A DNA stretch of 64,000 nucleotides from a phage, in the NCBI GenBank assembly GCA_020381345.1, contig GCA_020381345.1_3636.1, one strand, 5' to 3'. Shown here one piece after another: positions 4,412 through 64,000 of the stretch. Made by a program: the position numbers and the translations under genes. Within the stretch, counting starts at the first letter, position 1, and every line of letters begins with the position of its first letter. The notes under the pieces were generated by a model. It saw only the letters and a list, made by a program, of their open reading frames with translations, did no database searches and was not told where the DNA came from.

Positions 4412-4440
4412 GCCCTCGCTTCGGCGGGGGCTTTTTGTTT
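4412..4440 (+). terminator. rho-independent terminator
   Basis: GC hairpin with TTCG loop then CTTTTTGTTT. Confidence 0.6.
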
Positions 4441-43353: not shown

Positions 43354-43836
43354 ATGTCAGATTTTATGTGGAAAGTAGGTTACGCAGCTCCTGAAATGTG
43401 TGAGGCTTGCTTTGTGAAAATAGGCCGCGAGGATATCGACAAAGTGATCCTTAAGTTTCGTGATGTAGCTGTGATCGGCAACCGAGTGCTTAAGCACTTA
43501 AAGAATCTGAAGCTCACCAAAAAGAAGTTCTTCGGACTTTTCGAAGAGAAAGTTGATGCTTGGACCCATTGCATTCAGGAAGCTAAATCTCACTACAGTG
43601 CTATCGTTACCCCAGAACGGGTAGCCAAGATGGAAGGACTCATCAACAGCACAGAGTTTGAGTGCCTAAAGGCTGCCCTTGATAGTTATCCGAAATGCCT
43701 CAAGCACTTGGACAAGTATGTAGAAAAGGATGGGGAAATGTATCTCACCCTGGATGCATACTATGAGATGCAAGAAATTTTAAATTTAGATTTGACATTG
43801 GTATCCACCGAGTATACAATAGGTATCCGGGTTTAA
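43354..43836 (+). CDS. hypothetical protein
   Basis: 160 aa ORF; terminator follows. Confidence 0.4.
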   Translation: MSDFMWKVGYAAPEMCEACFVKIGREDIDKVILKFRDVAVIGNRVLKHLKNLKLTKKKFFGLFEEKVDAWTHCIQEAKSHYSAIVTPERVAKMEGLINSTEFECLKAALDSYPKCLKHLDKYVEKDGEMYLTLDAYYEMQEILNLDLTLVSTEYTIGIRV

Positions 43837-43842
43837 CACTAG

Positions 43843-43870
43843 GCCCTGCCCGAAAGGGTGGGGCTTTTTG
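43843..43870 (+). terminator. rho-independent terminator (repeated element, copy 1)
   Basis: GCCCTGCCCGAAAGGGTGGGGC then TTTTT; identical 22-mer at 54265. Confidence 0.55.
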
Positions 43871-54264: not shown

Positions 54265-54292
54265 GCCCTGCCCGAAAGGGTGGGGCATTTTT
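54265..54292 (+). terminator. rho-independent terminator (repeated element, copy 2)
   Basis: GCCCTGCCCGAAAGGGTGGGGC then ATTTTTG, after SSB gene. Confidence 0.55.
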
Positions 54293-55090: not shown

Positions 55091-55516
55091 ATGATCTATG
55101 AAATGCCAAAACTGATTCGTGACGATGCCCAAAACGCTCACACCATTATTATGGGCAAACGCATGGATATTATTTGTCATAAAGATTTCTGGGAAGGAAG
55201 TTACTTCACAGAGTATTTTGGTAAACTGGACAATGGTCTGCTGATCCAGTTCTACACCGATGCGGAAAACAATATCTGCTGGGAGTTCGAAACTGAAGAT
55301 ATCCATAAACTTTTCACCTTCCTCGGTATTAAGGTTGAGGCCAAGTTTGAAGAAGGTGAGTGCGACGATTGTGGATTCTACGAGGTAACAGATTTCTACC
55401 TCCCGAGCGGTGAGAACCTTTACTATGAAAGCCACTTCGGTAACTCCAATATGCCACAGTGCTGGACTGAGTTTTTTGAAATTGCGGAAGAGGAGCTGGC
55501 ATACCGTGATTATTGA
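55091..55516 (+). CDS. hypothetical protein
   Basis: GGAGA RBS; 141 aa. Confidence 0.4.
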   Translation: MIYEMPKLIRDDAQNAHTIIMGKRMDIICHKDFWEGSYFTEYFGKLDNGLLIQFYTDAENNICWEFETEDIHKLFTFLGIKVEAKFEEGECDDCGFYEVTDFYLPSGENLYYESHFGNSNMPQCWTEFFEIAEEELAYRDY

Positions 55517-55964
55517 TACTGTAGGGGGAGATCTAATCTCTCTTTTCAAGAAAGGGTCGGGCCACATGATCCACGGTTGTAACTGCTTTCACACAATGGG
55601 TGCAGGCATAGCGAAAGACATTGCCCGTGAGTTCCCTCAAGCACTGGCAGCCGACAAAGAGACTGCTTATGGTAATCTAGACAAGCTGGGTATGTTTTCT
55701 TGTTGGGAGCATTTTGCCAAGAACAGGGTCGTATATGGAATCAACCTGTATACCCAGTTCTACCCAGGGCCCAATGCTGAATACTTCTCAATCATGAAAG
55801 GTTTTGAGCGAGTCAACGAGGTATTCAAAGGTGTGTCATTGCCGTTCTACATTCCTAAAATCGGATGCGGTATTGGCGGTCTAAAGTGGGAACATGTAGA
55901 AGATGTAATTAATCTTGCAACCACAGATATTGATGTGGTTGTAGTAGAGTACAAAAAGTGTTGA
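55506..55964 (+). CDS. macro domain (ADP-ribose binding/hydrolase-like) protein
   Basis: VIIDTVGGDLIS...HMIHGCNCFHTMGAGIAKDI...IPKIGCGIGG resemble macro-domain N-terminal strand, Gly-rich loop and C-terminal loop; GTG start overlapping upstream stop proposed (an upstream in-frame ATG at 55410 would overlap the previous gene extensively). Confidence 0.5.
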   Translation: MIIDTVGGDLISLFKKGSGHMIHGCNCFHTMGAGIAKDIAREFPQALAADKETAYGNLDKLGMFSCWEHFAKNRVVYGINLYTQFYPGPNAEYFSIMKGFERVNEVFKGVSLPFYIPKIGCGIGGLKWEHVEDVINLATTDIDVVVVEYKKC

Positions 55965-56215: not shown

Positions 56216-56410
56216 ATGAGAAACAAGAAAGAGCTTTACTCTGGTGAGTGGATCAACGATCAACAGGTGGGAGAGGTAACCTGCTTCCGATGTTTTACCA
56301 GGTACAATCTTAAAACTGCACCAAAAAGTGTTCCAAAGACTGATGGTTATTACATAAAAGAACCTTATTGCCCAAAATGTAAATGCCGATTATACTGGAG
56401 TAACCTGTAA
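56216..56410 (+). CDS. small zinc-ribbon protein
   Basis: GGGAGAG RBS; CFRC ... CPKCKC. Confidence 0.4.
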   Translation: MRNKKELYSGEWINDQQVGEVTCFRCFTRYNLKTAPKSVPKTDGYYIKEPYCPKCKCRLYWSNL

Positions 56411-56473
56411 AAGATTGACATCTGAAAACTGCAGTGTATAATATATGCATAAACTAACAGAGAGTGATGTATT

Positions 56474-56665
56474 ATGGTAATTTTTAACCGGGATGGTATC
56501 ATAGTTAGACAGCACCCGTTCCTTGAATACTATCAAATTGAGCAATGGTGCTACGGGGATTGCAGTCACTCCTATGGGCAAAGTTGGGGATATCGTACAG
56601 TTTTTGAATCCACAGACCTTGACAAAGTAAGACAGAAAGTTTTAGAACTTATTAACAACAAGTGA
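56474..56665 (+). CDS. hypothetical protein
   Basis: 63 aa ORF. Confidence 0.35.
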   Translation: MVIFNRDGIIVRQHPFLEYYQIEQWCYGDCSHSYGQSWGYRTVFESTDLDKVRQKVLELINNK

Positions 56666-56672
56666 GTATGAT

Positions 56673-57462: not shown

Positions 57463-57788
57463 CAGAGATCATCATTTCAACTGCAGGGTATGTGTTCCTG
57501 ACAATCATTGCACTGACCATTCTGGTGGTGGTATATGGAATTGTTATTCTCCCTATTCTTGAGACAATTAGTTTGTGTCGGTGTTGGAGAAAGGCTTACG
57601 GTCCACAGCCGTGGAAGGACTGGCCCCACCTGGTGCACATAGCGTTCTCTTATGCTTATGATCACGCCAGCAGTGCATGCATAACCGGGTATCACGCCCA
57701 CAACTGGAGCTGGGAAGGGTTGAGGAAATGGAATGTTACAAAGACCATACCTCTGCGCATGTACAAACCTAAAAACAAAGACAGCTGA
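57459..57788 (+). CDS. membrane protein (N-terminal transmembrane helix)
   Basis: AAAGGGGA RBS; hydrophobic N-terminus IIISTAGYVFLTIIALTILVVVYGIVILPIL. Confidence 0.4.
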   Translation: MTEIIISTAGYVFLTIIALTILVVVYGIVILPILETISLCRCWRKAYGPQPWKDWPHLVHIAFSYAYDHASSACITGYHAHNWSWEGLRKWNVTKTIPLRMYKPKNKDS

Positions 57789-57819
57789 TACTTGAAAATT
57801 CCTGGCATATCAAGTATAA

Positions 57820-58300
57820 GGGGGATTTCTAAAATGGATTTCCTCCTTTTGATATTTCACCGGGCCGGATATTTTAAAATTCTTAGAAAATCAGAAAATG
57901 GATCGAAAACTAAAATGGATTTTTCAGAGTAGGCGCGACAAGCTGAATAACTCATCCTATCGTTTGCACCATATTCCAGGCCACCATTATAGATTTCCCA
58001 CACATGCTAACCTCTCTCTACTAGAACTTCCTCCACTTACCCTTGACCTTCTATGGTAACAATCTAACCGCTATCTTGAAGTTGCGGTGCAGCTTTCCAG
58101 GTACTCGATCTACTTTTCATTTCAGGGCTTGGATTTTCTGAAAATTTTTCTCGATAAATTTCTCAGTACTCGATCTGTTTTTCGTTTTCTGAATCGGATT
58201 TTCTGGAAATCGTTCCGGCTCTCAACCTGAAATTTTTGGGGACGAAATCGATTTTTCGTTTTCAGAAATGGATTTTTAAAATTTCTATATGGGAATATTT
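57820..58300. repeat. AT-rich non-coding region with recurring AAAATGGATTT / GGATTTTCTG / ATCGAAAAC motifs
   Basis: No credible ORF; motif recurs at ~57833, 57896, 57913, 58131, 58196, 58270. Confidence 0.5.
58098..58210. repeat. imperfect ~48-bp direct repeat, two copies, ~66-bp period
   Basis: CAGGTACTCGATCTACTTTTCATTTCAGGGCTTGGATTTTCTGAAAAT vs CAGTACTCGATCTGTTTTTCGTTTTCTGAATCGGATTTTCTGGAAAT. Confidence 0.55.
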
Positions 58301-58392
58301 TAGTGGATACTATTTTATAGTAAATTGTTACGGAGGGTAATTAGCGTGCTAATTAAATTTATTAAATGCGAGGAGTTCTCATTTAGAATTTT

Positions 58393-58650
58393 GAATGATA
58401 ATCATTCTCGTTTGCAGAATAACGGGCAGGCCCAGTGATTGTCTCCCGGCCCCTGTTGCCCCGGCTTGTTATTATAGTATCACACAGGACAAAGAAAGCA
58501 AGGATTTTTTGCATAAATTTTTAAATGATAATGATAACCGTTCTCATTTTATGCAGCGCCCATCCCCGGTGGTTGTCTCCCCCGTCACCGGTGCCTGCCG
58601 TCCTTTCGATAGGTATATTGTGCCACCTGGCGGGGCCGCTGTCAACACTT
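58393..58650. repeat. two paralogous GC-rich units in otherwise AT-rich spacer
   Basis: Both start AATGATAAT, then TTCTC, GCAG, TTGTCTCCC, GTGCC; second unit followed by direct repeat CCTGGCGGGG. Confidence 0.4.
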
Positions 58651-58742
58651 TTCAAAAAATTTTTCTAACCTGATGCGCTAACCGCTGCAACCTGGCGGGG
58701 GCGGCAGGTGGATTCTATCATAAAAATAATTTAAAATAGTCG

Positions 58743-58771
58743 TTGACAACAAGGTTAATCATGGTATTATT
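58743..58771 (+). promoter_or_regulatory. sigma70-like promoter (early)
   Basis: TTGACA, ~16-17 nt spacer, TATTAT. Confidence 0.45.
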
Positions 58772-58820
58772 ACCCTACAAGGTGAACAACACCGCACTAA
58801 CCAGTAAAGAGGATAAATTT

Positions 58821-59018
58821 ATGAACGCATACGGGATCAAAGTACGTCGCAACACTCGCCAGGTGGTCACCAATCAAGTGATTTGCCGGGTGGATGTAAC
58901 CATCAACAACGGGCAAGGCCTTTATAAATTTCGTCGCGGTCATAGCTATACCCTGCAACAGCTTAATCGTTGCGCCCTGACAAAAGGTCAGATCAACCAC
59001 TGGTTTAATAAAAAATAA
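58821..59018 (+). CDS. small early protein
   Basis: AAGAGGA RBS before ATG 58821; 65 aa; basic. Confidence 0.45.
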   Translation: MNAYGIKVRRNTRQVVTNQVICRVDVTINNGQGLYKFRRGHSYTLQQLNRCALTKGQINHWFNKK

Positions 59019-59020
59019 AT

Positions 59021-59049
59021 ATTGACATGTAGTCTGACACAAAATATAC
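59021..59049 (+). promoter_or_regulatory. sigma70-like promoter (early)
   Basis: TTGACA-17-TATACT. Confidence 0.55.
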
Positions 59050-59082
59050 TGAAATCACAAAAGACACTAAGAGGATAAAATC

Positions 59083-59481
59083 ATGAAAACCACAACCTTT
59101 AATTTTGATAATGCCAACTTTTCTTTTTCTGATGTCAAGAACTGCCGCCGTGATCGTGGATTTTACAAGGCTTATAATCTGGTGGGCCTGGACGATGACA
59201 ATAATTTGCACGAAGTAGCTGAGATCCGGTATTATGCCGCCGCCAGCGGGAACACTTACTACTGCGTTTTTTGGATACACGACAACAAGAACAATAAGTA
59301 CGGCTATACTGGCGGCAAGGCGAGCGGTCACGGTTATGATAAAGCTAACGCAGCACTTGAGAGCGCATTAAATGCTATGGGGATCACTGCCGACGGCTGG
59401 ATCTACGAAGAAGAGTTTTTGTCGGCACTTGCTGACCACCTAGGCTATAAAAAGCACATTGTAACATGCGCCCACGAATAA
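59083..59481 (+). CDS. early protein, hypothetical
   Basis: AAGAGGA RBS; 132 aa. Confidence 0.45.
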   Translation: MKTTTFNFDNANFSFSDVKNCRRDRGFYKAYNLVGLDDDNNLHEVAEIRYYAAASGNTYYCVFWIHDNKNNKYGYTGGKASGHGYDKANAALESALNAMGITADGWIYEEEFLSALADHLGYKKHIVTCAHE

Positions 59482-59487
59482 AAATCA

Positions 59488-59515
59488 TTGACACGCTGCA
59501 AAATTTAAGTAAACT
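59488..59515 (+). promoter_or_regulatory. sigma70-like promoter (early)
   Basis: TTGACA-16-TAAACT. Confidence 0.45.
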
Positions 59516-59563
59516 AGACACAAAAGGCGGGAATGTTTCCCGCCAGCACAAAGGAAAAAGATC

Positions 59564-59968
59564 ATGAATAAGAACGTACGCCGCATCATGAACGAGTTGG
59601 CAAACGATGAAAAAATTATTGACATGCATTTGATCAACATTTGCCGCCGTTGTGTAACATATAACAACCGCGCCGCAAAAGCGCGTGAGATGAACGCAAA
59701 AGGCACCTTAAAGCCATTCCAGGTGGTGGTAAAGGCCATTAAAGATGTAACTAATACGGCAAACCAGGTACAGGGGAACACCAACGAGAGTACCAACATT
59801 GATCCGGCTTACATCATGAAACGGATCCGGACCTGCAAGAACAAAGAGCAAGTGTATAATGTCATAGACTGGTTGGATTCTATGGGCGATGTGGTTTACA
59901 ATAGGTTTTCTGCAGCTATCGAGATCCAGCTTGACAGGTTGGACGGTAAAGTACTGAAAACTTACTAA
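59564..59968 (+). CDS. early protein, hypothetical
   Basis: AAAGGAAAAAG RBS; 134 aa. Confidence 0.45.
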   Translation: MNKNVRRIMNELANDEKIIDMHLINICRRCVTYNNRAAKAREMNAKGTLKPFQVVVKAIKDVTNTANQVQGNTNESTNIDPAYIMKRIRTCKNKEQVYNVIDWLDSMGDVVYNRFSAAIEIQLDRLDGKVLKTY

Positions 59969-59979
59969 GTTTATTTTTA

Positions 59980-60016
59980 GATGGCCTTGACTTCAGGGCC
60001 ATCAATAAAGTAAACT
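59980..60016 (+). promoter_or_regulatory. promoter cassette: 7-bp-stem hairpin enclosing -35 (TTGACT) then TAAACT
   Basis: GATGGCC TTGACTTCAG GGCCATC inverted repeat; near-identical copy at 60604-60640. Confidence 0.5.
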
Positions 60017-60051
60017 AATCTCAACTAAGCGAAAAAAAAGGGGGCTTTAAG

Positions 60052-60171
60052 ATGAGCACTACACGCCAATACACAAAGGTAACTATTATCGTTTGCGTTG
60101 TCGGTTACATCCTGGCGCAAATGTTAATGAGTAGCGCTAACAGTTTTGCAAAATTTTTCTTAAATTTTTAA
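60052..60171 (+). CDS. 39-aa hydrophobic peptide (below track threshold)
   Basis: GGGGG RBS 7 nt upstream; MSTTRQYTKVTIIVCVVGYILAQMLMSSANSFAKFFLNF; own promoter. Confidence 0.4.
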   Translation: MSTTRQYTKVTIIVCVVGYILAQMLMSSANSFAKFFLNF

Positions 60172-60172
60172 T

Positions 60173-60199
60173 TGACAAACTAACTTAGATCGATATACT
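60173..60199 (+). promoter_or_regulatory. sigma70-like promoter (early)
   Basis: TTGACA-15-TATACT. Confidence 0.4.
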
Positions 60200-60250
60200 T
60201 AAACACGTAAACGGGAAAACTTCCCAGAGCACACAAAAGGAGAAAACACC

Positions 60251-60592
60251 ATGACTACTATGACCGCCGCAGAAAAAGCTATGCAGATCGCCGCGCTGAA
60301 AAAACAGATCGCAGACCTTGAGAACAAGATCGATAACTTTGAAATCGACGAGGACAAGTACGACGAAAACTATGATGAATGGTTAGACGAGATCTACGGC
60401 GAAATTATGATCGGAAACATTTCTTTTCTTCCGTCGCGTATCCTCAAGGAGCTAGATCCTATCGCTTACCGCTGCGGATTTAGCGACTACATTGACAGCC
60501 TGGATATTGAGGACGATGAAGAATACCAGGAACTACAGACAGAGTTAGAAGAAGCAAAAGAAGAGCTTGCGGAGCTGGAAGAAAACGAGTAA
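60251..60592 (+). CDS. very acidic early protein, candidate DNA-mimic anti-restriction protein (Ocr-like by composition and context)
   Basis: AAAGGAGA RBS; 113 aa, Asp/Glu-dominated, ends EELAELEENE. Confidence 0.45.
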   Translation: MTTMTAAEKAMQIAALKKQIADLENKIDNFEIDEDKYDENYDEWLDEIYGEIMIGNISFLPSRILKELDPIAYRCGFSDYIDSLDIEDDEEYQELQTELEEAKEELAELEENE

Positions 60593-60603
60593 GATTATTT
60601 TTA

Positions 60604-60640
60604 GATAGCCTTGACTTCAGGGCCATCAATAAAGTAAACT
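60604..60640 (+). promoter_or_regulatory. promoter cassette copy (hairpin + TTGACT ... TAAACT)
   Basis: GATAGCCTTGACTTCAGGGCCATCAATAAAGTAAACT. Confidence 0.5.
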
Positions 60641-60681
60641 TTATACTGTTAACACTGAACTAATTCAGAGGAGTTAAAACC

Positions 60682-60927
60682 ATGGCAGCACTAATCACCA
60701 AATATTACGCCCCTACCAACACCAAAAGCGCCCGTATCATGGTAAAAGGCTTCGGACGTAAAAAGGTTTACACCTGGGATTATTCCCTAGACATGGAAGA
60801 CAACTACACCAACGCGATGACCGATTTTATTAACGAGCTGAATACGCGGATCTTAACAAATTATAAAATTACCGACATTGCTTATATAGGTGAAGGCGGG
60901 ATCTGTTTTGTAGGCATTGTGAAATAG
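60682..60927 (+). CDS. early protein, hypothetical
   Basis: AGAGGAG RBS; 81 aa. Confidence 0.4.
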   Translation: MAALITKYYAPTNTKSARIMVKGFGRKKVYTWDYSLDMEDNYTNAMTDFINELNTRILTNYKITDIAYIGEGGICFVGIVK

Positions 60928-61002
60928 TTATTTTTTCGGTGGTCCTTGCTGCAGGGCCATCTATAAAGATAATTTACTAACACCATGAAAGGAGAAAGTA
61001 AC

Positions 61003-61356
61003 ATGATCAGCGGGGCTAGTTTTATTATTGGCGCTATTGCTACGGCTTTAATTGTAAACAAGATCCAGGATAAAAAGGAAAGAGGAAGTACCGCCCTTGC
61101 AGAATATCCATTTTGGACATTCAACGATAACGAAGATTATATTGTAAAGTATAAAAATAAAGAAGGTGACCAAGTAACACCGCGACCGATCCCCGCTTAC
61201 AAGATGCAGGAAACACTATACCGCCTGGAGGCGGGGGGCGCAAAAATTGTAGACTTTTGGGGATACGATCACACAGATCAGGAAGCTATAAAGCGACGTA
61301 TCAGGGCTATTCAGGCCAATATTGAAGTTAGCAAGGGGGGAATATATGAAGATTAA
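61003..61356 (+). CDS. early membrane protein
   Basis: AAAGGAG RBS 8 nt before ATG 61003; N-terminal TM helix. Confidence 0.4.
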   Translation: MISGASFIIGAIATALIVNKIQDKKERGSTALAEYPFWTFNDNEDYIVKYKNKEGDQVTPRPIPAYKMQETLYRLEAGGAKIVDFWGYDHTDQEAIKRRIRAIQANIEVSKGGIYED

Positions 61357-61543
61357 TTTTGAGAAAATTGTAAAGCGATCTCATGATTCCGAAGAGCTGC
61401 CGGAACGCCGCCAGCGTAACAATAAACTGAATAAGCCAAAAAGATTTGGGAAGATCTGGCGGAATCATTATGATCGTAAATTGCCGGGCCTCCTTTTGGA
61501 ACGTGAACGGCAGGCGGAACGATACCGCCACAAAGGCAACTAA
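61346..61543 (+). CDS. small basic protein
   Basis: AAGGGGGG RBS; Arg/Lys-rich; terminator follows. Confidence 0.35.
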   Translation: MKINFEKIVKRSHDSEELPERRQRNNKLNKPKRFGKIWRNHYDRKLPGLLLERERQAERYRHKGN

Positions 61544-61551
61544 CAACCAAC

Positions 61552-61580
61552 GCCCCGCCATCGTGCGGGGCTTTTTATTT
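61552..61580 (+). terminator. rho-independent terminator
   Basis: GCCCCGC CATCGT GCGGGGC then TTTTTATTT. Confidence 0.6.
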
Positions 61581-61702
61581 CTATCCTATGAATAGCGCCC
61601 CTGGTTGGCCCCACAACGCCCTAAAGGCCCCCTGCCCATGCAATCCCCTTTCTTAACCTGAAAACATCGTCAAAGGCTGTTTTAAAGCGTTAAAAAATAT
61701 TG

Positions 61703-61730
61703 TTGACATCTAAAAATACTCTAGATATAC
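61703..61730 (+). promoter_or_regulatory. sigma70-like promoter (early)
   Basis: TTGACA-16-TATACT. Confidence 0.5.
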
Positions 61731-61766
61731 TAACCACATCAAAGCAAGAAGGAAGGAGTAAACGCC

Positions 61767-62027
61767 ATGCGTAAATTAAAAAATTTTGATAAAGTTGATG
61801 TTGTCCTGAATAATTTTTACTACTGCAATAACAAGGCCATTTGGTGGCGTGATAGTTCCACCGATAAGGTTAAGGCGCGCTTTCTCCAGGGGCACTGGCA
61901 AGGCCGCCCAGTGATTAAAATCATGGGGCAATTGGTAGCGTTTAAAAATTGCCGCCGTGTTGATGACGTTGAAGAGATTTTAAACATTTTGCGCCACAAT
62001 AATTTAAAAAATAGTGTTGACAAGTAA
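61767..62027 (+). CDS. early protein, hypothetical
   Basis: AGGAAGGAG RBS; 86 aa. Confidence 0.4.
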   Translation: MRKLKNFDKVDVVLNNFYYCNNKAIWWRDSSTDKVKARFLQGHWQGRPVIKIMGQLVAFKNCRRVDDVEEILNILRHNNLKNSVDK

Positions 62028-62044
62028 ATCTCGATAAGTATACT
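62017..62044 (+). promoter_or_regulatory. sigma70-like promoter (early)
   Basis: TTGACA-16-TATACT. Confidence 0.5.
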
Positions 62045-62101
62045 TAAACACACAGGCGGGAAAACTTCCAGCCACTAACAAAGAAAACAGGAGAAAATAT
62101 C

Positions 62102-62725
62102 ATGACCACCGTTAACATTACCACAGGTTGCAATTTATCTTTCGACGTGCTGACCGACGAACAAAAAGAAAAAGCTATTGAAATGGTCCGCGAAAGAGAA
62201 GAACACAGCGGAGAGGATTTTTTCGCAGAAAGTGTAATTGAATATTATAAAGAACAAGTTTTTCCAGAGTACGGCCTTGAAGATACCGATGTACATTGGT
62301 CCGGATTTTGGTGTCAAGGCGATGGCGCGTCAATTAGTGCTGAAAATGTAGACTTAGAAAAATTCTTGCGTAAAGTCAAGGCCCTGACCAAGTTCCGATC
62401 AATTCGTCACTTGTTTGGCACAATGCACGATGGCGAACTATCAGCCAGTGTTGAACGCGACAAGTACAGCCATTATAGCCATGAAAACACTGTAAGCGGA
62501 TACATTGATACTACATGGCTAGACCTGACCACCAAGCAAGAAAACAAAGTGGAAGATCTGGAAGAGCTGATCACCGAGACGGTACGGGAGTTATCCCGCA
62601 AGGTTTACGTAGACCTGGAGGAGGCCTATCTTGAACAATTCACCGCCGAAAACTTGATCGGCCTTATCGAGGCCAATGATTGGCGGTTTGATGTCGATGA
62701 ATATGGTGAGATGACTTTTTCATAA
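62102..62725 (+). CDS. acidic early protein, hypothetical
   Basis: CAGGAGA RBS; 207 aa, acidic. Confidence 0.45.
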   Translation: MTTVNITTGCNLSFDVLTDEQKEKAIEMVREREEHSGEDFFAESVIEYYKEQVFPEYGLEDTDVHWSGFWCQGDGASISAENVDLEKFLRKVKALTKFRSIRHLFGTMHDGELSASVERDKYSHYSHENTVSGYIDTTWLDLTTKQENKVEDLEELITETVRELSRKVYVDLEEAYLEQFTAENLIGLIEANDWRFDVDEYGEMTFS

Positions 62726-62813
62726 ATAAAGTGTTGCAATAACCTAAAAACCTGCTATATTAAAACTCAAGGGGCAAGACGTTTGCCCCACATAGAATAA
62801 AGAGGGAAACATC

Positions 62814-63194
62814 ATGAAAAACACTACTAAAGCTATTGACACCGTTATGTTTAACCTGGTTACCTTTCGCGAGGATATGAAAGATCTTCCACGTGAAACA
62901 GTGTGCGATCACATTGAAAACTATCGCAAACTAATCAAAGAGTTGCCTTTAAAACGTGACCAGTATGCGGCTAACGCTATGCTCAACGCCATGATCAAAA
63001 AGATGATCCAGTGTGATTTAACTTTGGCCTATGATTATGCAGGAGGTCGTTTTGCAGTATACAATCAGCCCGTGCCTGGTATGGGCACCACCGAAGAATT
63101 GCACGCGCTCAATCTAAAACAAGACGTGTGGGATAGTATGCCCCGCGTGGTGGTGTGGGCAGAAAGCGGAAAGATTTACGGCGATAATTTTTAA
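62814..63194 (+). CDS. early protein, hypothetical
   Basis: AAGAGGGA RBS; terminator follows. Confidence 0.4.
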   Translation: MKNTTKAIDTVMFNLVTFREDMKDLPRETVCDHIENYRKLIKELPLKRDQYAANAMLNAMIKKMIQCDLTLAYDYAGGRFAVYNQPVPGMGTTEELHALNLKQDVWDSMPRVVVWAESGKIYGDNF

Positions 63195-63204
63195 TCAGGT
63201 AACA

Positions 63205-63230
63205 GGCGGCATATTTGCCGCCTTATTGTT
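63205..63230 (+). terminator. rho-independent terminator
   Basis: GGCGGC ATATTT GCCGCC then TTATTGTT. Confidence 0.55.
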
Positions 63231-63258
63231 AAACAGAACTGCAAAAGAGGTACATAGA

Positions 63259-63630
63259 ATGGAATTTATTATTTTGGCTGTATTGGTTGCCTTGTTTAAC
63301 GCCTGGATCGCTGGCAAGATGGGCAGATCCGCCTTTTTATGGTTTATTATATCTATTTTCCTGGGGGTGGTTGCAACTATTGTATTGGTTATCCTTGCAA
63401 TTGTTGACAAGGGGAATAATAGAAAGGGTAAAGTATTTTCAGACCTGTACGACGCTCAAACGTTTGTCAACGCCTATTATAGTGATCTTCCAGTCTCCCT
63501 ACGCTGCAGCCTGGCACAACAGGTTTTTGATGAGGCTAAAACCAGAGATCAAGCCCATGAGATATGTTTAACTGAGGCGGATCGCCTATTTGAGAGGAAT
63601 AGAAAATATGTGGGCCAACCGTTTAAATAA
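63259..63630 (+). CDS. early membrane protein (two TM helices)
   Basis: AAGAGG RBS before ATG 63259; MEFIILAVLVALFNAWIAG...FLWFIISIFLGVVATIVLVILAIV. Confidence 0.4.
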   Translation: MEFIILAVLVALFNAWIAGKMGRSAFLWFIISIFLGVVATIVLVILAIVDKGNNRKGKVFSDLYDAQTFVNAYYSDLPVSLRCSLAQQVFDEAKTRDQAHEICLTEADRLFERNRKYVGQPFK

Positions 63631-63740
63631 TGCCACGTTAATTAATCCTTTTAGTGAAGATTTGAAGCCAGCCGCCTGGCGTGACGGATTCAATAACGAA
63701 CGCTTTATTTTCAGGCCTGATCTTGAGGAATTTTATAACA

Positions 63741-63866
63741 ATGGATCGAACAACAGCGGAGATAATTTTTCTTGTGGTGTGTGTCGTGATAGGACTCCTG
63801 GGGGCCATTGTAGATCGCGTCACCACTACCAGGAGGAAAGGGGGAGACGATGACAACCAAGGATAA
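63741..63866 (+). CDS. 41-aa single-TM peptide (alternative to overlapping 63608..63853 frame)
   Basis: MDRTTAEIIFLVVCVVIGLLGAIVDRVTTTRRKGGDDDNQG; the overlapping frame has low-complexity C-terminus; uncertain which is expressed. Confidence 0.25.
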   Translation: MDRTTAEIIFLVVCVVIGLLGAIVDRVTTTRRKGGDDDNQG

Positions 63867-64000
63867 GCCATGCACCGATAAGGTGCGCCGCGTTATGGTA
63901 TAGCTTGAGATTATCGCCCTTGAAATATTGCTAGGCGTAGGGATGTACTTTATCGCTGTAAGTAACTAGGAACGGCCCCCGATCATGGGGGCCTATCTTT

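Follow-up and report, generated by a model that had tools for sequence, protein, structure and literature searches.

Promoter-early stem-loops (PeSLs) are mobile regulatory cassettes of T4-like phages, described in RB49/phi1, PST/T4 and nt-1/KVP40 (PMC2839356; PMC4122927). Their definition covers stem-loops that overlap the -35 box as well as those lying 3' of the -10 box (PMC2839356). In bacteria, promoter-coupled terminators have been reported whose stem-loop and -35 box occupy the same DNA and whose transcripts terminate some 10 bp short of the start site (Fletcher et al., bioRxiv 10.64898/2026.08.19.745784).

We have analyzed a window of 64,000 nucleotides that belongs to a Vequintavirus (rV5/FV3-like, infecting E. 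coli) and shares 93-95% identity with more than 100 phage records. One of its regions contains ~10 host-type promoters, each preceding one or two small genes and many of them joined to a conserved RNA hairpin. As judged from comparison with related genomes, the repeated promoter-hairpin units are sites where related phages lost or gained gene cassettes. Our literature search found no paper on the hairpin repeat, or on its link to indels, in the Vequintavirus genus, and no transcript data for any Vequintavirus were found in the searchable literature.

An array of host-type promoters

The first-pass annotation of this DNA had claimed eight sigma70-type promoters, and all were found, on the + strand and in intergenic DNA. 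Between 58740 and 63260, this strand carried eight sites scoring at least 10/12, compared with 0.84 ± 0.88 expected from 1000 dinucleotide shuffles, none of which reached eight. Five sites scored at least 11/12, against 0.07 expected from the shuffles, and the minus strand of the same interval had no site of at least 10/12. Six of the claimed coordinates were correct and two were shifted (59021 to 59022 and 60173 to 60172, respectively); the promoters were near-consensus, with spacers of 16-18 nt rather than the proposed 15-18 nt. A ninth promoter, P62734, was missing from that annotation. With nine clear promoters and one degenerate promoter for 11 genes (g1-g11), the picture of a dense near-consensus sigma70 array serving one or two small genes each was borne out. 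A Shine-Dalgarno sequence and a start codon followed each promoter at a distance of 32-57 nt. The tracts upstream of the promoters were AT-rich, and the leaders contained 46% A and 14% T (regional values, 34% and 24%). We infer promoter activity and strength, and early timing, from sequence.

Six of the eight promoters had already been predicted, independently, in rV5, as P195A, P195, P194, P192, P186 and P185 (Kropinski et al. 2013, PMC3606486). The rV5 tables lack both TTGACT hairpin promoters as well as the GATGGCC/GGCCATC hairpin (PMC3606486), and the putative late-promoter motif of rV5 did not occur at 58-64 kb.

All promoters are given here with the gene that they are predicted to drive. 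P58743 (58743..58770, TTGACA-16-TATTAT, g1) is TG-extended with an AT-rich upstream tract and corresponds to rV5 P195A/P195B; its hexamers are kept among relatives and its spacer is divergent. P59022 (59022..59050, TTGACA-17-TATACT, g2) and P61703 (61703..61731, TTGACA-17-TATACT, g9) correspond to rV5 P195 and P186, respectively, and these three promoters have no hairpin. P59488 (59488..59515, TTGACA-16-TAAACT, g3) is rV5 P194. P60172 (60172..60199, g5) and P62017 (62017..62044, g10), both TTGACA-16-TATACT, are rV5 P192 and P185 and have in common a 53-nt unit (repeat family D6), the latter promoter overlapping the end of g9. P59987 and P60611, both TTGACT-18-TAAACT, are found inside class I units A and B (see below) and precede g4 and g6, respectively. 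Finally, P62734 (62734..62761, TTGCAA-16-TATATT) precedes g11; in PBECO4, TTGCAA-16-TATAAT units with a hairpin adjoin the g10 homologue, and Avunavirus 24-2-1 has a similar but weaker unit.

Two classes of hairpin

Class I hairpins surround the -35 box. The unit shared by two of them, described previously as 37 bp long, actually comprises 51 nt beginning at the upstream gene's stop codon (59966-60016 versus 60590-60640, 96% identical). Unit A (59966..60016) contains the g3 stop codon, an AT-rich tract and a hairpin at 59980-59989/59994-60003 that includes the -35 box TTGACT (59987-59992), followed by the -10 box TAAACT (60011-60016). Unit B (60590..60640) has the same layout, with the g5 stop codon, an AT-rich tract, a hairpin at 60604-60613/60618-60627 around TTGACT (60611-60616), and TAAACT at 60635-60640. 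The proposed GATGGCC...GGCCATC inverted repeat around the -35 box is present in unit A; unit B reads GATAGCC in this phage, which leaves one A.C mismatch. As RNA, the class I stem has 10 pairs, including one G.U, with stabilities of -17.8 kcal/mol (z -5.4) and -11.2 kcal/mol for units A and B, respectively. The hairpins were stable when compared with shuffled sequences.

The degenerate unit C (60924..60974, + strand) contains the g6 stop codon, a T-rich tract and a hairpin at 60938-60946/60953-60961 (two G.U pairs, -14.3 kcal/mol), and precedes g7-g8. Its -35 box has decayed to TTGCTG (TGGTAG, TGGTTG or TAGTGG in relatives), and its -10-like hexamer is GATAAT. Relatives have a fourth copy, unit D, ~3.4 kb 3' of unit B and just past the window end. 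Class I is the largest intergenic repeat family of the whole 64 kb, with three copies in the window and four per genome in relatives, all within 4.4 kb. The hairpin always begins 11-12 nt 3' of the stop codon and ends ~20 nt 5' of the predicted transcription start. Since it wraps the -35 box, it would be present in RNA only at the 3' end of transcripts coming from the upstream gene.

Class II hairpins are found on the + strand at P59488, P60172, P62017 and P62734, in every case at +3 to +8 of the predicted transcript. The P59488 hairpin (GGCGGGAATGTTTCCCGCC, 59526..59544, ~+4; -14.6 kcal/mol, z -4.25) is kept in 13 genomes, and one relative has the entire hairpin flipped. The weak hairpin of P60172 (GGGAAAACTTCCC, 60213..60225, ~+7; -5.9 kcal/mol, z -1.4) is also kept among relatives. 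The one at P62017 (GGCGGGAAAACTTCCAGCC, 62055..62073, ~+4) has one mismatch in the window phage and is perfect in relatives, with a flipped loop in A51.2 and a U.G variant in L015. For P62734 (GGGGCAAGACGTTTGCCCC, 62771..62789, ~+3; -12.6 kcal/mol, z -3.1), the stem variants of relatives stay paired via G.U.

Neither class is followed by a + strand U-tract, unlike the canonical terminators of the phage itself, and efficient intrinsic termination is thus doubtful. One such terminator follows g8 (61552..61580, + strand, GCCCCGC..GCGGGGC then TTTTTATTT, -15.9 kcal/mol) and belongs to the same family as those at 4413, 9680 and 35807. A terminator-like hairpin after g11 (63204..63223, + strand, AGGCGGC..GCCGCCT then TATTGTT, -16.2 kcal/mol) is labelled a terminator in the annotation of phage Alma.

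Selection on hexamers and stems

We have calculated diversity (pi) from a 13-genome alignment. The -35 hexamers (0.043), -10 hexamers (0.038) and hairpin stems (0.021) were conserved like codon positions 1 and 2 (0.037 and 0.019, respectively); promoter spacers (0.128) drifted like position 3 (0.138). Within this alignment, the values show purifying selection on hexamers and stems. In the class I alignment, 97.9% of cells were paired and the 3' arm was invariant in all copies and genomes, with four pairs varying on one side only (A-U/G.U, C-G/U.G). All stem changes were wobble-compatible, on the + strand RNA only, and the unit C stem was present in every genome despite the decay of its -35 box. 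No double compensatory change was found in any stem pair; hence covariation does not prove RNA structure.

Loss and gain of cassettes

Phages ime, magaca and ECP26 and the metagenomic IMG/VR contig L014 are without exactly 624 bp between units A and B. The segment comprises g4, P60172 and g5, and the deletion junction is a single chimeric unit. In ECP26, the P62017 unit is additionally chimeric with that of P60172. At P61703, we have found three indel alleles: a 540-bp insert with three ORFs (in L015 and, at 98.5%, in phage MiataMamis), a 24-nt scar where TTGACA is repeated in tandem, and a single promoter. Comparison of these genomes shows natural deletion and insertion alleles with junctions inside the units. 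Depending on the genome, the same loop variants (TTC, TCC and ACC) are carried by one or another of the paralogous copies, a pattern suggestive of gene conversion. Other nearby indels involve unrelated short repeats or microhomology, so recombination is not exclusive to the units.

The genes served by the array

The genes are all on the + strand. g1 (58821..59018) encodes 65 aa (pI 11.0), g2 (59083..59481) 132 aa, and g3 (59564..59968) a basic protein of 134 aa. The 624-bp cassette carries g4 (60052..60171; 39 aa, one predicted membrane helix) and g5 (60251..60592; 113 aa, pI 4.1, acidic and largely helical in character). They are followed by g6 (60682..60927, 81 aa), g7 (61003..61356; 117 aa, a membrane helix at the N terminus) and g8 (61346..61543; 65 aa, pI 10.8), which matched Pfam Phage_1_1, the T7 gene 1.1 family (E 9.5e-11, 42.4 bits, cut-off 21). 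The last three are g9 (61767..62027; 86 aa, basic), g10 (62102..62725; 207 aa, pI 4.4) and g11 (62814..63194; 126 aa). Homologues of g10 occur in several unrelated large phages, and its confident structure model gave no fold match in the PDB.

Ten proteins were scanned (g1-g3 and g5-g11). Apart from the gp1.1-family match of g8, the other nine had matches just to PHROG families whose function is unknown, and the local proteins yielded no DNA-binding family. The suggestion of a host-takeover/anti-defence repertoire receives no support from these results. The description of the products as often acidic or membrane-anchored applies to five of the 12 proteins, and another five are strongly basic.

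A proposed composite cassette and its alternatives

We consider that the region is probably a hyperplastic Vequintavirus arm, presumably early-expressed, of PeSL-type composite regulatory cassettes. Each cassette would combine five elements. The first is the stop codon that ends the gene before it, in an AT-rich tract resembling an UP element. The others are a near-consensus sigma70 promoter that host RNA polymerase would read in its unmodified form, usually a GC-rich stem-loop, a leader rich in A and C that carries a strong Shine-Dalgarno sequence, and one small gene, occasionally two. We infer every RNA-level role of the hairpins. Class I would most likely attenuate or pause read-through, aided by polymerase on the coupled promoter, and/or cap the 3' end of the upstream mRNA, and such an action would insulate adjacent cassettes from each other. 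Class II would most likely be a 5'-terminal stabiliser of the cassette's own transcript. As the units are direct repeats of at least 50 bp or have a common TTGACA core, they would also be recombination substrates, and their recombination would delete, insert or convert cassettes leaving the neighbours undisturbed.

Alternatively, promoters and hairpins could be independent, the latter being plain intrinsic or minus-strand antisense terminators that overlap promoters for lack of intergenic space, with the repeat a duplication remnant of no composite function. The intergenic spacers are indeed just 60-90 nt long, and the annotators of phage Alma labelled the 59526 and 62055 hairpins as terminators. 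In addition, class II hairpins are followed on the minus strand by T-rich tails and score there as intrinsic terminators, a role that they may have. However, the region has no minus-strand genes and no minus-strand promoter scoring 10/12 or more, and the + strand U-tract of the phage's real terminators is missing. Moreover, hairpin position is fixed relative to the stop codon (class I) or transcript start (class II), and the stems are more constrained than other intergenic DNA (pi 0.021 versus 0.087). We thus regard this explanation as unlikely.

It is quite unlikely that the hairpins serve solely as signals for RNA processing or stability, capping 3' ends once an endonuclease has cut read-through transcripts and also capping 5' ends, with transcription unaffected and recombination incidental. 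The strand-specific wobble tolerance, the A/U-rich flanks as possible RNase E targets, and the position of class II hairpins at the extreme 5' end of predicted transcripts are compatible with such signals. In E. coli, mRNAs are stabilised by stem-loops at the 5' terminus, as in ompA, and the early mRNAs of T7 are cleaved into units that end in hairpins. Yet a PeSL stem-loop of RB49 lowered downstream reporter expression in the manner of a strong terminator (PMC2839356). Nor would such signals explain why, in three of the four class I copies, the hairpin is locked to the -35 box.

Least likely is a double-stranded DNA operator, GATGGCC...GGCCATC, at which a dimeric phage or host protein would bind across the -35 box and switch three to four hairpin promoters off (or on) jointly, for instance at the early-to-middle transition. 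Although the palindrome brackets the -35 box, its 3' arm is invariant, there are just four sites per genome within 4.4 kb, and terminator palindromes overlapping promoters can double as transcription-factor sites (LexA at yobI/ruvA), the arms of different copies are distinguished by A to G and C to T changes that destroy the symmetry of the DNA and keep + strand G.U pairs, unit C retains the repeat having lost its -35 box, the local proteins offered no DNA-binding family, and the 7-bp arm centres are 17 bp (~1.6 helical turns) apart, which is unusual for dimeric helix-turn-helix operators. For the same reasons of pairing and of unit C, the regulator-binding site once proposed for the repeat fits poorly. 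The other half of that proposal, a terminator-promoter fusion duplicated as a module, was essentially right, given the PeSL architecture, the promoter-coupled-terminator geometry and the recombination as a module in natural isolates.

Comparison with known systems

The composite cassettes proposed here resemble PeSLs in their order. An AT-rich tract that includes a stop codon is followed by a near-consensus sigma70 promoter, a stem-loop in a position covered by the PeSL definition, a Shine-Dalgarno sequence and ATG. The phi1 layout matches (taa, AAAAGTTG-TTGACA, stem-loop, TATACT/TATAAT, CA-rich leader, GGAG, atg). In both systems, units repeated many-fold occupy a region of small orphan genes, indel junctions of close relatives fall inside units, and degraded "half" units adjoin indels. 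However, PeSL phages are Straboviridae and the phage studied here is a Vequintavirus, and the class I stem is GATGGCC/GGCCATC instead of the GGGG...CCCC of RB49/phi1. There are four class I copies per genome compared with ~50 PeSLs, and three promoters are without a stem-loop. Mini-circles and terminator activity were experimentally shown in RB49/phi1.

The array is also similar to those of virulent coliphages (T4 early, T5 pre-early/early, T7 A1-A3), with near-consensus sigma70 promoters, AT-rich upstream tracts and small genes of unknown function. The geometry of class I is that of the bacterial promoter-coupled terminators: the element lies between tandem genes, and the stem-loop shares its DNA with the -35 box of the tandem transcription unit that follows. 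The bacterial elements have a T-tract between stem and -10 box where class I has AATAAAG, and 3' ends are predicted in our case. A class I 3' end 7-9 nt past the stem would fall ~10-13 bp before the start, which is the spacing preferred in the bacterial study.

Promoters of the region 58740-63260

The first-pass annotation had named eight promoter-like sites between 58740 and 63260, all of which we found on the + strand and in intergenic DNA. Six coordinates stood as given (58743, 59488, 59987, 60611, 61703 and 62017), while the other two were off by one and should read 59022 and 60172. Promoters are designated here by the first base of the -35 box (P58743 and so on). We have also detected a ninth promoter, TTGCAA-16-TATATT at 62734 (+ strand), and a decayed one whose -35 remnant lies at 60946-60951 (+ strand) within a third hairpin unit. 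The nine promoter sites had match scores of 9-11 out of 12, with A/T-rich sequence upstream of every one. The distance from each of the eight previously named promoters to a downstream start codon with a strong Shine-Dalgarno was 32-57 nt, and in all 12 genes the ATG was preceded by a GGAG/GAGG-type motif at a distance of 6-9 nt.

We have compared the number of promoter sites with 1000 dinucleotide shuffles of the region. Eight sites scoring at least 10/12 were observed on the + strand (shuffle mean 0.84, no shuffle reaching eight), five of them scoring at least 11/12 (shuffle mean 0.07), and none scoring at least 10/12 on the minus strand. The promoter clustering noted by the first-pass annotation is thus not due to chance. 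Three promoters, P58743, P59022 and P61703, had no stem-loop and can be regarded as plain promoters.

The genome paper of phage rV5 (PMC3606486) lists predictions for 33 promoters and 20 terminators. P195A, P195, P194, P192, P186 and P185 of its Table S4 (PMC3606486) correspond to window positions 58743, 59022, 59488, 60172, 61703 and 62017, respectively, and four of these six are also present in the GenBank record. Most of the promoters were already known, as predictions. Both TTGACT hairpin promoters are absent from Table S4, and neither GATGGCC nor GGCCATC occurs anywhere in the supplement of that paper (PMC3606486).

The region 58700-63300 aligned over its full length, at 93-95% identity and with the same gene order, to more than 100 Vequintavirus records, including rV5, FV3, Murica and A51.2. 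According to GC skew and ORFs, the sequence from position ~32 kb up to the window end is entirely + strand. Seventeen records labeled “Campylobacter phage” (MG0656xx, host C. jejuni) were 93-94% identical to the present E. coli Vequintavirus across the whole region; these are probably mislabeled or contaminant assemblies.

Literature searches returned no Vequintavirus transcriptome. We infer early expression of the region from its host-type promoters, the type of genes it carries and the absence from it of a putative rV5 late-promoter motif. With one mismatch allowed, this motif (TGGTAAAATA) gave 15 matches against 6.5 expected; nine of the 15 lay on the + strand within the first 21 kb (1-21200) and none past 56.3 kb.

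Just upstream of the first promoter there is a stretch of ~950 bp without genes (57790-58740). It contains direct repeats of 65-74 nt in three copies (58091-58276), together with a pair of paralogous units, in both of which a near-consensus Fur-box-like sequence lies beside a GC-rich segment. These sequences, TTGAATGATAATCATTCTC at 58391 (15/19 to the Fur consensus) and GATAATGATAACCGTTCTC at 58527 (16/19), are the top Fur-consensus matches in the 64 kb and are conserved in all relatives; the first is also present in Avunavirus 24-2-1, where the repeat layout is the same. Folds in the stretch were only weakly better than those of shuffles. An Rfam search of 57500-64000 (E up to 1) found no family, either here or in the promoter region. 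The stretch might serve as an origin, encode small RNAs or titrate Fur.

Two classes of hairpin units

The first-pass annotation had described a repeated 37-bp unit with a hairpin around the -35 box. The repeat is real, but it is 51 nt long. Units A (59966-60016) and B (60590-60640) are 96% identical, and unit C (60924-60974) is a degenerate third copy with 71% identity; the first base of each coincides with the stop codon of the preceding gene. In the 64-kb window, no other intergenic repeat family is as large as that of this class I unit. The stems at 59980-60003 and 60604-60627 surround the -35 boxes at 59987 and 60611. Folded as RNA, unit A forms ten pairs, one of them a G.U (-17.8 kcal/mol, z = -5.4), unit B has lost one pair through a G-to-A change private to this phage (-11.2 kcal/mol), and unit C includes two G.U pairs (-14.3 kcal/mol).

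The class II hairpins are GC-rich and begin 3-8 nt past the expected start site of four promoters, namely P59488 (59526-59544), P60172 (60213-60225), P62017 (62055-62073) and P62734 (62771-62789), all on the + strand. A 53-nt unit, hairpin included, is common to P60172 and P62017 (family D6). Stem-loops therefore occupy two positions, overlapping the -35 box (class I, three copies in the window) or downstream of the -10 box (class II, four copies).

On the + strand, no U-run comes after the hairpins of either class, and we rejected both as canonical intrinsic terminators on that strand. The canonical terminators of this phage do have a U-run; a GC-rich stem with an immediate U-run was found at 61552-61580 and, weakly, at 63204-63223. 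Outside the region, an identical 22-nt hairpin (GCCCTGCCCGAAAGGGTGGGGC) with a T-run is present at about 43830-43851 and 54265-54286. The upstream copy lies ~20 nt 3' of an 11/12 promoter at 43792 (rV5 P231), a combination that would yield a very short transcript or an attenuator.

Conservation of promoters and stems

Nucleotide diversity (pi) per site class was calculated from an alignment of the window with 12 relatives. The values were 0.043 for the -35 hexamers, 0.038 for the -10 hexamers, 0.021 for the hairpin stems, and 0.037 and 0.019 for codon positions 1 and 2; promoter spacers, codon position 3 and other intergenic DNA gave 0.128, 0.138 and 0.087, respectively. Hexamers and stems are thus under purifying selection, with the intervening sequence drifting.

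Each relative genome has four class I copies, the fourth lying ~3.4 kb past copy B, just outside the window. With a 55-nt query and at blastn sensitivity, the class I unit was detected in Vequintavirus only (121 records, mostly at three detectable places each). Hence, distant copies are lacking for covariation analysis. When IMG/VR was scanned for the pattern of the hairpin core, two Vequintavirus contigs only were retrieved, the other matches being chance occurrences in coding DNA.

Over all copies and genomes, 97.9% of the cells of the class I stems were paired. The 3' arm was invariant and the 5' arm showed three recurrent transitions (A-U to G.U, C-G to U.G and U.G to C-G). No double compensatory change was found in any copy or genome, and the invariant 3' arm makes the shuffle control uninformative, so that the pattern falls short of proof by covariation. 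The 5' arm changes are tolerated only in the + strand RNA, since the opposite strand, like duplex DNA, would carry mismatches at these positions. A minus-strand or DNA-cruciform reading of the class I hairpin was rejected, as the G.U pairs turn into C.A mismatches.

In unit C, the stem was kept in every genome while the -35 box varied freely (TTGCTG, TGGTTG, TGGTAG, TAGTGG, TGGTAA), so that the hairpin is maintained for its own sake. The suggestion in the first-pass annotation that the inverted repeat is a regulator-binding site fared less well, because the stem changes break the match in duplex DNA and unit C keeps the stem although its -35 box has decayed. The class II stems behaved like that of unit C, with G.U-compatible variants. 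In two relatives, a whole class II hairpin was flipped into its exact reverse complement (the 59526 hairpin in L015 and the 62055 hairpin in L004), with the loops changing from TGT to ACA and from AAC to GTT. From the sequences, this looks like template switching or inversion within a perfect palindrome.

Cassette loss and gain at the units

Exactly the 624-bp A-to-B segment (g4, P60172 and g5) was missing from phages ime and ECP26 and from IMG/VR contig L014. The single unit retained at the junction is flanked like unit A on its left and like unit B on its right, and a junction-specific query identified phage magaca as a fourth carrier. JLBYU08 has the cassette and the conspecific ime lacks it, and the sequence background of ECP26 differs from that of ime; this argues for a loss that is recent and, probably, recurrent. 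Identical loop variants were observed at different paralogous copies in different genomes, and the 5' half of the ECP26 P62017 unit was that of P60172. Both observations point to gene conversion between units.

Three alleles were found at P61703. In the first, 540 bp are inserted that carry three small ORFs together with a TTGACA of their own (relative L015; phage MiataMamis, 98.5%); the second has a 24-nt scar with two tandem TTGACA and the end of the third ORF preserved (rV5 and six others); the third has a single promoter (the window and four others). Such natural alleles show the units to be mediators of cassette loss and gain.

Indels are not confined to the units, and some use other repeats or microhomology. 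Between CCTGGCGGGG repeats immediately 5' of P58743, some 220 bp with a small ORF are absent from the window. At window 58689-58700, relatives have 110-220 bp more, including an ORF of ~55 aa, flanked by direct repeats AACCTGGCGGGG; this segment has been lost in the present phage and partly deleted in A51.2. The 131.9-kb variant rV5_ev146 (LR699804) lacks window 59551-60063, with microhomology CGCCA..CACAAAGG at the junction, and also ~5.5 kb downstream of g8. The rV5_ev146 deletions use microhomology, and the hairpin units were rejected as their sites.

rV5-like phages serve in typing and therapy, and host takeover may not be alike in isolates that are distinguished by entire cassettes.

Genes of the region and probable exchange between phage families

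Among the ten scanned proteins (g1-g3 and g5-g11), nine had matches only to PHROG families of unknown function. Searches of Pfam, PHROGs and PDB sequences gave a single functional assignment, for the small basic protein g8 (61346-61543), which matched Pfam Phage_1_1 (T7 gene 1.1) with 42.4 bits against a gathering cut-off of 21 (E 9.5e-11). Of the twelve proteins, two are strongly acidic, five strongly basic, and a membrane helix is predicted for three. The predicted structure of g10 (62102-62725), modeled with high confidence (pLDDT 86.9), had no Foldseek match in PDB at E ≤0.001. The anti-defense and host-takeover repertoire proposed by the first-pass annotation thus found no support in Pfam, PHROG or PDB sequence matches, nor in the g10 structure search; an anti-defense role is neither supported nor contradicted.

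Homologues of g10 at 58-61% identity were present in the jumbo Asteriusvirus phages PBECO4 and phAPEC6; Klebsiella K64-1, GAP32-like, Caulobacter, Acinetobacter and Bacillus phages had weaker homologues. By sequence comparison, g10 is a widely travelled gene among unrelated large phages. Similar promoter-plus-hairpin cassettes surround its homologues in Avunavirus 24-2-1 and PBECO4, so that the promoter-hairpin layout is widespread among large coliphages. Upstream of the region, a 63-aa gene (56470-56669) shared 84.5% DNA identity (87-89% protein) with ORF260 of the T4-like Krischvirus phi1 and relatives; the similarity does not extend past the ORF, and the promoters are different. In phi1 there are also homologues of three adjacent genes (55286-55504, 55704-55958 and 56216-56413), one of them being Tk.4 (macro domain). 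The phi1-like genes point to recent single-gene exchange between unrelated phage families.

The ORF260-like gene and the g10-homologue cassettes are hints of a wider reading, which we put forward tentatively and consider rather improbable. The units could represent, in Vequintavirus, a general cassette-exchange system that large virulent coliphages have irrespective of family, in which similar units of Vequintavirinae, Krischvirus and Asteriusvirus move single orphan genes. Such genes would pass between unrelated phages co-infecting one cell, perhaps via excised circles, and would bring or adopt their own expression signals.

Comparison with known systems

The promoter-early stem-loop cassettes (PeSLs) of T4-like phages combine an AT-rich tract holding a stop codon with a near-consensus sigma70 promoter, a stem-loop, and a Shine-Dalgarno with start codon. 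The stem-loop may take five positions, including over the -35 box and downstream of the -10 box, and PeSLs are repeated in hyperplastic regions beside orphan genes, where they mediate indels and mini-circles (PMC2839356; PMC4122927). All sequence-level features of PeSLs occur in the window: near-consensus sigma70-like promoters with conserved hexamers (pi about 0.04), an AT-rich tract with the upstream stop codon in units A, B and C, stable stem-loops at two of the PeSL positions (-35 overlap and after -10), a Shine-Dalgarno with start codon closing each unit on its 3' side, repetition amid orphan genes (9/10 scanned proteins in unknown-function PHROG families only), and indel junctions at units between close Vequintavirus relatives. 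The phi1 PeSLs and the window also share the AAAAGTTG-TTGACA context, a CA-rich leader and the TATACT -10 box, which phi1 uses too, but with TATAAT being its commonest -10 box. No direct DNA or protein link was found between phi1 and 58740-63260, the common genes lying upstream at 55.2-56.7 kb. The difference is one of distribution and not of mechanism, PeSLs having been described in T4-like myoviruses and the window belonging to Vequintavirinae. Our literature searches found no PeSLs outside T4-like phages, and for Vequintavirus the hairpin unit and its association with indels seem not to have been described before. If the PeSL-type nature of the units is confirmed, cassettes of this type would not be peculiar to T4-like phages; large lytic phages would have a general way to express, insulate and reshuffle small accessory genes, and there would be a concrete rule for locating cassette boundaries in the many “hypothetical” early regions.

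In the promoter-coupled terminators of bacteria, the stem-loop DNA coincides with the -35 box of the next promoter, the RNA ends ~10 bp before the start site, and termination is enhanced by polymerase at the coupled promoter (bioRxiv 10.64898/2026.08.19.745784). The class I stem DNA likewise lies over the -35 box of the next promoter, which follows in tandem, and its predicted geometry is compatible with the 3'/5'-end spacing of these terminators. In contrast to them, class I units have no T-tract between stem and -10 box, this stretch being AATAAAG in units A and B and TATAAAG in unit C. The class I unit is a compact natural instance of a hairpin locked on a -35 box without a T-tract, and offers a possible test of the promoter-coupled-terminator model.

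The PeSL-type layout, the promoter-coupled-terminator geometry and the unit-junction alleles together suggest that the first-pass annotation came close to the mark in proposing a terminator-promoter module. On sequence grounds, the best description of the region is a Vequintavirus array of PeSL-type regulatory cassettes.
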